From Octopus vulgaris (lineage: Eukaryota), in NCBI GenBank assembly GCA_951406725.2, contig OX597824.1, forward strand, positions 51,026,001 to 51,090,000: 64,000 bases of DNA, written 5' to 3'. Numbering within the stretch: position 1 is the stretch's first letter; the number at the start of each line of letters is the position of its first letter. The notes beneath the pieces are model-generated. The model worked only from the letters and a program-made list of their open reading frames with translations. It did no database searches and had not been told where the DNA came from. This document shows, in pieces, positions 2,776 through 49,904 of the stretch. The position numbers were made by a program, and so were the translations under genes.

Positions 2776-2838
2776 AGATAACCGAAGAGATGGTGTTGTG
2801 GATTTCCACTTCGGCATCTGAAACTCAGAGTTTTATCT
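2776..2838 (+). ncRNA. Minimal hammerhead-like motif (U4C core) in a ~270-bp cassette (2670-2937) ending in (TA)n
   Basis: AGATAA-CCGAAGA-GATG..CATC-T-GAAA-CTCAGAG-TT-TTATCT. Confidence 0.7.
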
Positions 2839-3223
2839 TGACTACCGAGTAATGTAACATATTGTATAGATAAATTTCCTCTATTTACATAATATTGAGG
2901 TCTCTTTCTTTCTTTTGTTATCTTACCGTTTTATCAATATATATATATATATATATTTTATTATTTTATTATTATTTTTTTATTTTTTTATTTTTTTATT
3001 TTTTTAATTTTTTTATTTACTTTTTTATTTTTTTATTTATTTATTTATTTATTTTTTTATTTATTTTTTTATTTATCTATTCTTTCATCTAACTTACCAC
3101 TGACTCCTTGACCACTCCTCCAAGTATGATATTTTGCGCTATGCCTACCCCCAAAAAAGTCCCCCACCACCACTCCTTTAAACCTGCCTAAATGTATAAA
3201 TGCTAATACAATTCTTGTTAAAT

Positions 3224-3274
3224 AGCTTCCTGAAGATTTCTCTTGAATGAAACAGTACTAGTCCTGTAGAAGCT
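3224..3274 (+). ncRNA. Type I hammerhead ribozyme, canonical core
   Basis: AGCTTC-CTGAAGA-tTTC tctt GAAt-GAAA-CAG tactagtc CTG-TA-GAAGCT; predicted GUA cleavage triplet. Confidence 0.85.
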
Positions 3275-3590
3275 CCTTCTATATAATAAATTAATTTTAC
3301 TCTGCTATGTATTGAGTACCTTACTTACTGTGGTTAACCCCGAATCAACCCGGGACCTACATATATATATATATATATATATATTGAAGTAGATAAATGA
3401 ATTATCTTATTACGGATAATTCAAATGATAACCGATACCTGGGTAGCAAAAAACACAACAGAAAAAACACGGTTGAAGTTACGACCATGGGGCATAAAAA
3501 CCGTGCCTTAGTGCGGAAATTTGAAGTTTTATATATTAAGTGTAGGAAGAAATGGAGCTGAACGAAGATTTAACAAAATTCCTTTATATT

Positions 3591-3678
3591 ATTTTCTACA
3601 TATGTTTCGAAGGCTGCAAAAGTCCCTAATTCGGATTGAATAAGGAGTCCATTTTTGCAGCTTTCTCTTCAGGAAAAT
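3591..3678 (-). ncRNA. Mirror copy of the same hammerhead (left arm of palindrome)
   Basis: Reverse complement of 3787-3873. Confidence 0.85.
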
Positions 3679-3786
3679 CCAGGAACTTAATTCTCCAACA
3701 AAATGCACAACAAGCTGTTCGACAAACGCTCATGAGCGTTTGTCGAACAGCTTGTTGTGCATTTTGTTGGAGAATTAAGTTCCTGG

Positions 3787-3873
3787 ATTTTCCTGAAGAG
3801 AAAGCTGCAAAAATGGACTCCTTATTCAATCCGAATTAGGGACTTTGCAGCCTTCGAAACATATGTAGAAAAT
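3787..3873 (+). ncRNA. Type I hammerhead ribozyme with long stem II (right arm of palindrome)
   Basis: ATTTTC-CTGAAGA-GAAAGCTGCAAA..TTTGCAGCCTTC-GAAA-CATATG-TA-GAAAAT. Confidence 0.85.
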
Positions 3874-3991
3874 AATATAAAGGAATTTTGTTAAATCTTC
3901 GTTCAGCTCCATTTCTTCCTACATTTTATATATATATATATATATATATATATATATATATATATATATATATATATATATATATATATAT

Positions 3992-47534: not shown

Positions 47535-47700
47535 ATCTTTTATTTGCTTCAGTTATTAGAAAGTAGTCATGCTGCAGCACCACATTGAAGACGTTTAGTC
47601 GAATAGATCGAACCCAGTGCTTATTTTTTTAAAGCCTGGTACTTATTCCATCGTACTCTTTTGTCGAACTGCTAAGTAACGGAGACGTAAACACACCGAC
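47535..47700 (-). mobile_element. SINE family B, 3' half
   Basis: Reverse complement of the family B tail. Confidence 0.75.
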
Positions 47701-47807
47701 AAAGACACGCGCGTGCGCGCATACATATATATATATATATATATATATATATATATATGAAAAAGCAAGTCAAGATAGAAAATGCTAAAATAATTTTATA
47801 AAGAACA

Positions 47808-47850
47808 TTTCAGTTCCAGGTTCGGTCATTTGAGACCTTTTCAACTGTAA
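47808..47850 (-). ncRNA. Decayed minimal hammerhead with U3-A8 core in a (TA)n-abutting cassette (from ~47759)
   Basis: Minus strand TTACAG-TTGAAAA-GGTC tcaaat GACC-GAAC-CTGG-AA-CTGAAA. Confidence 0.55.
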
Positions 47851-49528
47851 CAATTAAAAAATTAAATTTAGAAAAATTAAAAGAAAAGTTTTTTTAAAAG
47901 AATATTTGTATAGTGTTCAAATATAAGTGGCATTTTCCTTGTTTCTGCCTTTCTCTGTCTCTCTTGTTTACTCTTGTGGGTTCAAGGTCCATGTGAATTC
48001 ATCAAGTTAGATCTATCAGTCATATCTTCTTCCTTCATATCTAACCCTACAGTCTTCAGAAGCGTGCGGTCTGGATAGATATAAGCCATATCTGTAAACG
48101 AAAGATAAATAATGGTCACCATTGGAACGACTCCAGTCATACATCTTCTTGATCAGAGCTGATCTCTTAAATGAGCGGCAGCAGTGGTAGCAGCAGTAGC
48201 GGTAGCAGCAGCAGCGGCCACGACACTAAATATTCATTCTGTCGAAGAAAATGCTATTTTATTGCGAATAACAATAGCAATAACAATATCAGCAGCGGGA
48301 TCAGCAGCAGTAGCAAATTCAACGTGGTCCAATTTGCCTTTAAGGACAATGGAAGAAAAATGTCACCGGATACAGGGCTTATAATGTGAGATTGCTTTTT
48401 CTTATAATTTTCCCCACGGGGTCAGTCAGCCTTCCCGCTTTCCTCCTTGTGCGAAACTAAAGCAGGAGTGTAGAATGTTGTGCAAAAACCACTGCAGGGA
48501 TCCTCTTTCTCTCCTGAGTTATTCGTCAATTTTTCTTTATCATATTCTCTGACCTGGGTCCAGCCTCTGAACATGAACGAGCTGCTAGCAACTTCCGCCG
48601 CAATATTAGTAGCGCGAACATTGCAGCATCAACAATAGACAACTGATCGTTAATGATCACCATATATGGCCTACTTTTGACGATCAACCGGAAGTGCTAT
48701 CAGTTGTTAATATGATCTATCTATCTATCTATCTATCTATCTATCTATCTATCTATCTATCTATCTATCTATCTATCTGCACATACACACACGCACACAC
48801 ACATTCACACACACACACACACACACACACACACACACACACACACACACACACACGTTCATACTTATAACCGCACAGTCTTGATCCCACATTCTTTAAC
48901 CACTTTTCTTTCGTTCTGTCTTTCCCTCTCTCGCGCGCTCTCACTCTTACTTTCACTGACGTATTTTCCCTCTCTCTCACACTGGGGCTCTATATATATG
49001 TATGTGTGTGTGTGTATATATATATATATATATATATATATATATATATATATATATACATATATATATATATATATATATATATATATATATATATATA
49101 TATATATATATATATATATATATATATATATATATATACATATATATATGTGTATATATATACCTCTTTCTCTCTGTCTGCATACAATATATATATATAT
49201 ATATATATATATATATATATGCAGACAGAGAGAAAGAGGTACATACATGCATGCAGACAGACAGATATGCACACACAGAAAGTGTGAGTGAGACAGAGAG
49301 GGGACAGAGAGTAGTTAATGAGAATGTCACAAGATTACAAAAGTATGTATAAAAGCTTATGCGCACATATAAATAAATATATTTATATGTGTGTATATAT
49401 ATATATATATATATATATATATATATATGTGTATATATAGGGGAGAATTCACAAAAAAACAAAAGACGAAGACAGGTGGTGTAGACAACAAACAGATGTA
49501 TTAGTATAACGCTCGAGAAGTGAAAAGT

Positions 49529-49564
49529 GTTTAACGTTTCGCGCCTACGTTCTTCCAGAGAAAG
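49529..49564 (-). ncRNA. Decayed hammerhead-like motif in a (TA)n-flanked cassette (49440-49630)
   Basis: Minus strand CTTT-CTCTGGA-A-GAAC gtag GCGC-GAAA-CG-TT-AAAC; same layout as the 11890/34074 motif. Confidence 0.45.
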
Positions 49565-49847
49565 GAACACAGAAAGGAACAAGGAGAGAAAATAAAGAAT
49601 GTGTAGTGGCTAGCGGTCTATCATGCCGAAATATATATATATATATATATATATATATATATATACACACACACACATATAATTAAGGGTTTAGCAAAAG
49701 GTTGCTTCACCACATACAGAAGTTTTGAAATAGCAGTCGAAACCGCCAATTCTTTTAACTACAATATAACTCCGCAGACAGCAATACTCGTAACACCACA
49801 TAGGCAAAAAGAAGAAAAAATAACGAAATCAAGCAGTCATTCGATTA

Positions 49848-49904
49848 ATCATGTACGCGTTTCAGGATTAGAATTGTAAAATTCATTTTCTTCATCAGAT
49901 CTTG
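49848..49904 (-). ncRNA. Minimal hammerhead with intact core and eroded stems, in cassette 49680-49910
   Basis: Minus strand ..CTGATGA-AG..GAATT ttac AATTC..CT-GAAA-CGCG-TA-CATGAT. Confidence 0.62.

Follow-up and report, generated by a model that had tools for sequence, protein, structure and literature searches.

Penelope-like elements (PLEs) are known to carry hammerhead ribozymes. Craig et al. 2021 (PMC8557442) defined the Hydra clade, with hammerheads and (TA)n targeting and with an octopus member, Hydra-1_Obim of Octopus bimaculoides; non-autonomous Chlamys elements are also mentioned there. Cervera and de la Pena 2014 (PMC4209133) described solo motifs in truncated PLEs and pairs of motifs on opposite strands, 100–700 bp apart, the minimal PLE hammerheads cleaving weakly and as dimers. 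In the shrimp Penelope (PMC7878876) simple repeats move with recently transposed copies, and the protein of an anole PLE cuts AT-rich DNA on both strands, reverse transcription starting at two internal sites that define the tail. Retrozymes have already been proposed to be PLE-dependent units. This literature leaves open what PLE hammerheads do and which machinery mobilises animal retrozymes. Here we consider a 64,000-nt stretch of the Octopus vulgaris genome (assembly GCA_951406725.2, contig OX597824.1, positions 51,026,001 to 51,090,000), called the window below, in which an earlier note, made from the letters alone, had described about 14 hammerhead motifs in short cassettes running into (TA)n.

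We conclude, with high confidence, that these cassettes are 3' ends of PLEs and of short non-coding units of like anatomy, likely written into (TA)n by a PLE reverse transcriptase (RT)–endonuclease. Twelve families were distinguished in total: six are PLE-linked, three are non-coding units, and the others are I (at 11384), E2 (49529) and K (26643). Both truncated PLE ends and non-autonomous retrozyme-like units occur, since six families are linked to PLE coding sequence and three are non-coding permuted units; the earlier estimate of roughly ten PLE-derived families of either kind thus holds. The genomic similarity searches scored the best 40 candidates only.

Published work already covers hammerheads in PLEs, solo motifs in truncated copies, the targeting of (TA)n and a Hydra family from octopus, and the basic observation is ordinary. 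Less ordinary are the retrozyme-like units with PLE insertion scars and the microsatellite-like 3' untranslated regions (UTRs) of 1.5–3.4 kb. Among the papers listed by the literature searches, none describes hammerheads in octopus short repeats beyond Hydra-1_Obim; supplements may list these families; the word 'ribozyme' is absent from the main text of the 2026 octopus repeat annotation.

Six families run upstream into PLE coding sequence, three of the Hydra type (A, B and C) and three of the Neptune/Nematis type (E, H and J). For three of the six, A, B and J, full-length open frames and tandem copies exist.

Family A is represented in the window by a 5'-truncated Hydra-clade PLE (818..2936, plus strand), which comprises a frame at 949–2580 for an RT with a GIY-YIG endonuclease at the C-terminus, frameshifted near 961, then a 3' UTR and a (TA)n end. 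The type-I hammerhead (2776..2838, plus strand) has a C3-G8 core, a bulged base at the stem II junction and a predicted cut after 2832; the open reading frame (ORF) directly upstream of it was absent from the earlier note. An inverted 5'-truncated copy (1..817, minus strand) is 100% complementary to 1537–2353; beyond the left edge of the window it runs on to a hammerhead and (TA)n of its own. Repeats of the (TA)n, (TG)n and tetranucleotide kinds are very abundant in the window, and this 817-nt inverted repeat was the exception in a repeat search otherwise swamped by simple repeats. Among 150 scored genomic matches of family A, 149 are at 100% identity and 13 lie within a 717-codon open frame (protein search). 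A tandem array has one hammerhead each 2588–2590 nt, that is, a unit of 2.59 kb, below the Hydra norm of <3 kb. The family carries RWK, DKT, the CxCX5C linker, CxxC and CxH near the end, and no CCHH, which is the Hydra definition; a Naiad/Chlamys identity was rejected, as the endonuclease is C-terminal. As a family, A differs from Hydra-1_Obim, the two having been compared by eye only.

The 3' end of another Hydra-type PLE, family B, lies at 2957..3360 (plus strand), with the hammerhead at 3224–3274 and a predicted cut after 3268. The family B hammerhead sits 3429 nt past the stop of a second Hydra-type ORF. The B frames have 718 and 722 codons, the protein is 40% identical to that of A, and the tandem spacing is 5191 and 5387 nt. 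In A and B alike, the frames of 717, 718 and 722 codons, read directly, form a single ORF with the RT followed by a C-terminal GIY-YIG; single ORF, domain order, DKT, CxCX5C, (TA)n and 3' hammerhead are shared with the Hydra-clade PLEs of PMC8557442. Family B has RWR where Hydra has RWK, the remaining Hydra motifs being present, and its U..U stem II junction is that of many Hydra hammerheads listed in the same paper. Its unit of 5.2–5.4 kb exceeds the size given there for the clade, generally <3 kb, because of a microsatellite-like 3' UTR of 3.1–3.4 kb. This UTR is shared at 88–96% among eight long copies and shows 84% purine–pyrimidine alternation, compared with 52% in a genome sample. That sample consists of 60 stretches of 10 kb at round coordinates (599,900 bases); family B matches cover about 3.9 kb of it, of which <1 kb are possibly generic repeat matches. 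Whereas in the shrimp Penelope (PMC7878876) simple repeats travel with recent copies, the repeat-like tract here belongs to the 3' UTR throughout the family and is kilobases long. Embedded in it is a fragment from a different hammerhead family, a piece of 72 nt with 75% likeness to G (L247:5088-5151), which is carried as cargo. In most of the 150 scored family B copies the open frame is limited to about 225 codons at the C-terminus; the common frame break may have been copied in trans.

Family C forms a palindrome. The arm with the long 3' end, or tail (3385..3736, minus strand), has its hammerhead at 3591–3678 with a stem II of 57 nt, and the inverted arm with the short 3' end (3737..3926, plus strand) has it at 3787–3873. 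About 600 nt upstream of the hammerhead is the end of an endonuclease remnant that shows 29% identity to A.

Among the Neptune/Nematis-type families, the 3' end of family J lies at 47760..48000 (minus strand), with a decayed copy of a U3-A8 hammerhead. Elsewhere the J frames run to 784 codons and match RVT_1 (E 2.9e-8) and GIY-YIG (E 1.5e-4), and the tandem spacing is 4383 and 4423 nt. In the J units L302 and L303 a 446-codon frame lies upstream, overlapping the 784-codon RT–endonuclease frame in another reading frame. The CX2-5CxxC linker and the CCHH endonuclease motif, marks of Neptune/Nematis, are present in J and E; we keep the two clades unseparated for both families, E having a CA-rich UTR of 1.5–2.0 kb and J the extra upstream frame. 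Family H is a 5'-truncated PLE end of the same type (4837..5450, plus strand), with an endonuclease remnant at 4874–5008, a decayed hammerhead at 5354 and, at the family level, an A3-U8 core with a 2-bp stem II. Its PLE link is a tblastn match with E 2.5e-6 (locus L066); the assignment comes from a C-terminal remnant only.

Family E has two copies in the window, the 3' ends of a PLE with a CA-rich 3' UTR, at 11820..12022 (plus strand, minimal hammerhead 11890–11924) and 33980..34172 (minus strand, minimal hammerhead 34074–34108). It resembled a fixed 205-nt cassette until a targeted search recovered the long form: in 17 of the 20 loci found via an upstream anchor the hammerhead is 323–402 nt downstream of the anchor, and further upstream a CA-rich tract and RT–endonuclease remnants are seen in all ten loci out of ten. 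The UTR length of 1.5–2.0 kb comes from a comparison of coordinates. Since long copies with such remnants exist, E was not accepted as a fixed-ended non-autonomous element. Its 5' ends do cluster 101–112 nt upstream of the cut site, at ACATGTG, both in query-selected (12/17) and in bystander (6/10) copies. This hotspot is real: either microhomology between element and target causes truncation there, or a short master copy that is non-autonomous lies behind it.

Families D (4168), F (24048) and G (49848) are of the other kind, non-coding circularly permuted units of 362, 334 and 552 nt, respectively, whose longest ATG frames have 21, 41 and 66 codons. Part of the D unit occupies 3996..4211 (minus strand), with the hammerhead at 4168–4210, a U3-A8 core and a predicted cut at 4174; at 4211..4324 (plus strand) is a fragment in inverse orientation that has the long 3' end and runs into (TA)n. 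The 362-nt unit occurs head to tail, both orientations are seen in 38 of 45 loci, and it shows the full PLE insertion anatomy, with a truncated copy in inverse orientation, 3' ends of two kinds and (TA)n. A 96-nt D piece matches the query and 19 other places at 100%, hence a subfamily is young. The cut-to-cut monomer of D is strongly folded (z -7.0) and closed by stem I, G yields z -4.3, and a family A UTR taken as a control gives z -1.45. Family F is represented by an old copy at 24044..24278 (plus strand, hammerhead 24048–24095), and G by a truncated copy at 49677..49898 (minus strand) that has lost the 5' strand of stem I. Assembled contigs from four runs cover family A, and those from four cover D; they do not show ends, strand or level, and no informative joint was seen among them.

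Like non-LTR (long terminal repeat) retrozymes (PMC7229834; 10.64898/2026.07.22.740005), D, F and G lack coding sequence, occur in tandem with unit lengths of a few hundred bases, carry a single type-I hammerhead per unit and co-occur with PLEs; the strongly self-paired monomer is seen in D and G, F folding weakly. They differ in having PLE-type motifs with no evident loop contacts and mostly dispersed insertions of one to three units, known here from DNA alone. The G unit, at 552 nt, exceeds the typical retrozyme unit of about 150–400 nt, and D is set apart from the non-LTR retrozymes by its inverted partners, two 3' ends and (TA)n.

The insertion anatomy is shared across both kinds. The 5' ends are variable in A, B, C, F and G. 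In A, B, C and D there are two main classes of 3' ends, both followed by (TA)n, and the remaining copies read into the next unit. With positions counted from the cut site in 6-nt bins, the ends fall at 60 (n=9), 108 (n=10) and 42 (n=3) in A, 18–24 (n=14) and 96 (n=27) in B, 66 (n=11) and 210 (n=11) in C, and 168–174 (n=16) and 234 (n=11) in D; the corresponding values for J are 60 (n=18) and 96 (n=2). The PLE traits of tandem or partial tandem copies, an inverted 5'-truncated partner and an optional 3' tail are all seen in these four families, the tails (about 45–150 nt) being longer than the 30–40 bp published for PLEs; J has the tandem trait, and its 3' tail is rare. The earlier description of the hammerheads as minimal and of most cassettes as 200–400 bp long does not apply throughout: those at 3591 and 3787 are not minimal, given the 57-nt stem II, that at 2776 terminates a 2.1-kb PLE with an ORF, and that at 5354 terminates a 0.6-kb piece. 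The statement that 3' ends run into (TA)n is borne out for 11 of the 14 cassettes, one reaching it via a short (TG)n and one via a short CA-rich stretch; the cassettes at 11384, 24048 and 26643 do not end in (TA)n. Beyond the left edge of the window, an inverted B end comes after the inverted A arm; A is therefore nested in a palindromic insertion of B. The palindromic insertions of C and D lie next to this composite, and (TA)n connects them all.

The published PLE biochemistry suggests how such cassettes could arise. The GIY-YIG domain would nick AT-rich DNA at (TA)n, and reverse transcription would start inside the RNA at one of two sites, 20–240 nt past the cut site. Early termination would yield short copies, nearly all of which would retain the hammerhead owing to its position just upstream of the presumed start sites; inverted pairs would result if both strands served for priming. 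As copies span the cut site, the template would be an uncut or a re-ligated, possibly circular, RNA. If active, the hammerhead likely cuts tandem read-through transcripts, slowly, into unit-length RNAs, with cleavage predicted to be helped by dimerisation via the palindromic stem III or by the PLE protein. Units D, G and F would likely be non-autonomous and copied in trans, possibly from putative circles.

A broader proposal can be made only tentatively, and we hold it to be somewhat more doubtful than not: D is a young spreading retrozyme with the full PLE signature, and PLEs with long UTRs collect hammerhead cargo in a self-feeding loop that helps to make the genome rich in microsatellites and spreads some 100,000 hammerheads through it, all four 3:8 pairs being in use. 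If so, D would be direct anatomical evidence that PLE proteins act in trans to mobilise retrozymes of animals, and A, B and J would be the intact candidate helpers in the genome. This genome offers both a young 362-nt unit with PLE-type scars and PLEs of two types that are young and intact, which makes trans-mobilisation testable in vitro. The analysis also shows that PLE sequence makes up short 'SINE-like' (short interspersed nuclear element) cassettes and a share of the simple repeats of such genomes, and this matters for repeat annotation.

Several results count against the assignment of the cassettes to PLE ends and PLE-written units with working hammerheads. Pfam gives neither an RT nor a GIY-YIG match for the A and B proteins, and because of this silence the Hydra-clade assignment of A and B was made by motifs and by-eye likeness to Hydra-1_Obim. 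In J, the second 3' end is present in only 2 of 24 copies. The F unit comes from one tandem copy, is old and less secure, and folds weakly (z -1.9). The D, F and G units have no sequence link to the six autonomous UTRs compared, bar the 72-nt G-like piece in the B UTR, so that this comparison assigns them no helper. The hammerhead of the anole PLE cleaves only with the protein, and its mutants do not impair insertion in vitro, while eight of nine tested Xenopus hammerhead dimers did not cleave. Many of the motifs may be passengers, because E2 spread with a changed A6, the published mutants insert normally and most Xenopus dimers remained uncut. Single motifs fold no better than shuffles (z from -2.05 to +1.44, 12 motifs). 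In the covariation analysis of D described below, pairs with two-sided change number only three, a value reached by 279 of 500 shuffles, and one D two-sided change fits CpG decay; the patterns used to select the motifs already prescribe the core and part of the stem letters, and the subfamilies are related.

The strongest of the rival explanations draws on the same facts. The hammerheads might be catalytically dead, or dispensable marks such as protein-binding or folding signals, the elements spreading with no RNA cleavage. The E2 core (49529, minus strand) is changed family-wide, with A6 replaced in 19 of 20 loci and CTGTGGA in 18 of 20, the single motifs have weak folds, and for the anole PLE insertion in vitro is reported to be independent of cleavage, with no RNA-seq reads ending at the cut site. 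On the other hand, the anole motif does cleave with the protein, and all four Watson–Crick 3:8 pairs occur across the octopus families. Covariation was computed for the D and C-like sets. The 19 distinct D motifs have 98% of cells paired and two-sided changes in 17 cells, as against 6.5 in shuffles, none of 500 shuffles reaching the observed value; in the 14 C-like motifs ten pairs have two-sided changes, compared with 4.2 shuffled, again with none of 500. Stem covariation, whose absence the earlier note had named as a refutation, is thus above shuffles by cells in D and by pairs in the C-like set, subject to the selection of motifs mentioned above. The four 3:8 forms and the covariation point to selection on the catalytic fold, and so we regard dead or dispensable motifs as an unlikely explanation, one nonetheless to be taken seriously.

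Less probable still, and in our view improbable, is that the sampling missed the full copies of autonomous PLEs and that all the families, including D, F and G, are merely their 5'-truncated ends. With 40 candidates scored per search this could happen, and family E did seem a fixed 205-nt cassette before its long form was found; PLE protein matches also occur in 5 of the 45 D loci. However, upstream of the D, F and G hammerheads the sequence returns to the 3' part of the same unit, and the loci exceed one unit in 31 of 45 cases for D, 14 of 40 for G and 14 of 40 for F. In the two D loci with an ORF at most 20 nt away, (TA)n or an inversion intervenes. Truncated PLE ends side by side with retrozyme-like units remains our reading.

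That the motifs are chance matches in AT-rich, repeat-laden DNA is hardly conceivable, even if shuffles do reach the loose NYGANNA pattern and 26643 has little family support, given 8 motifs against 0.12 in the window, 24 against 0.6 in 600 kb, and a fixed place in the 3' UTR of intact PLEs. For the eight intact motifs chance is refuted, and these hammerhead motifs are genuine; it is possible for 26643.

The counts are as follows. A strict CYGANGA core descriptor gives four matches in the window against a shuffle mean of 0.0–0.075 (40 block shuffles), and allowing any Watson–Crick 3:8 pair and an optional extra base gives six against 0.04 (100 shuffles). The widened type-I descriptor accepts an extra base before stem II and any Watson–Crick 3:8 pair and also covers the stem II junctions found in A and B, an extension introduced once those families were known; 8 of the 14 motifs pass it, against 0.12 expected (60 shuffles). 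The loose pattern of the earlier note, NYGANNA with short stems, is found six times, which is not significant against a shuffle mean of 1.75 with a maximum of 6.

Hammerhead-like letters were read at all 14 coordinates of that note, and the intact motifs are 2776+, 3224+, 3591-, 3787+, 4168-, 11890+, 24048+ (counted with one stem I mismatch) and 34074-. They account for eight of the nine motifs it had called clear; the ninth, 49848-, is not intact because the 5' strand of stem I was lost through truncation. Together with it, 5354+ and 47808- are damaged copies of genuine families: 5354+ has G12 changed to A, GAAA being kept in 13 of 15 family loci, and 47808- is decayed, 10 of 15 loci of family J passing the descriptor. 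A core with a paired 3:8 and stems I–III is seen at the family level for G, H, I and J. Of the other three of the 14, 49529 has a changed core and 11384 is half a motif, both belonging to genuine families, and 26643- is weak, with stems I and III broken and only three weak relatives (81–87% identity). The E2 family, with its altered A6, and the K copy depart from this type-I pattern. An Rfam search listed no hammerhead among 150 of the 421 matches for the window, where microsatellites gave spurious microRNA matches, and on 2600–4300 none at the gathering score.

As in the metazoan PLE hammerheads of PMC4209133, an extra base before stem II, a palindromic stem III, the U3-A8 variant and thousands of motifs per genome are found here. 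The A3-U8 and G3-C8 families do not appear in the available part of that paper.

The genome sample contains 24 motifs in 15 of its 60 stretches, against 0.6 in ten shuffles, that is, one per 25 kb. The one per 5 kb suggested earlier therefore does not hold for the genome: five of the eight intact motifs lie in one cluster at 2.7–4.3 kb, about 1.5 kb wide, and the other 60 kb has three, a typical density. Thus the window is unusually motif-rich because of one nested cluster. Extrapolation gives about 110,000 hammerheads per genome (61,000–168,000, from a bootstrap of 13–36 motifs scaled to 2.8 Gb), compared with 2,000–9,000 in PMC4209133, the descriptors being different. The (TA)n insertion bias, a general PLE trait, is also visible in the sample, where (TA)4 lies at most 328 nt downstream of 18 of the 24 motifs but of 28.5% of random places. 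Several further hammerhead families turn up in the sample, and one extra family has a G3-C8 core and a 7-bp stem I (L073 flank; L402:8243-8292).

The three remaining cassettes are atypical. The family I copy (11372..11458, plus strand) is truncated and keeps only the 3' half of the family hammerhead. The core formerly placed at 11384 was a mis-parse and is rejected: in the family the first core box precedes GAAA by about 90 nt, and this copy lacks it. A 741-nt tandem unit for family I was also rejected, the spacer being unrelated sequence. The E-like cassette of family E2 (49430..49630, minus strand) has the core A6 changed across the family. E2 is abundant, with 1963 first-look candidates, and its stems I and II are still paired with letters changed relative to E. 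Candidate K (26620..26690, minus strand) is a decayed E-like motif with few relatives and is weakly supported. Very abundant SINE-like repeats, tRNA-derived in appearance, adjoin I (11460–11700) and K (26540–26600).

Other repeats of the window include a broken LINE (long interspersed nuclear element) at 50483–53814, with endonuclease (PF03372) and RT (PF00078) pieces, and remnants of Mariner-like transposases at 43581–43913, with no Pfam match, and at 57314–57961, with a match to PF01359.

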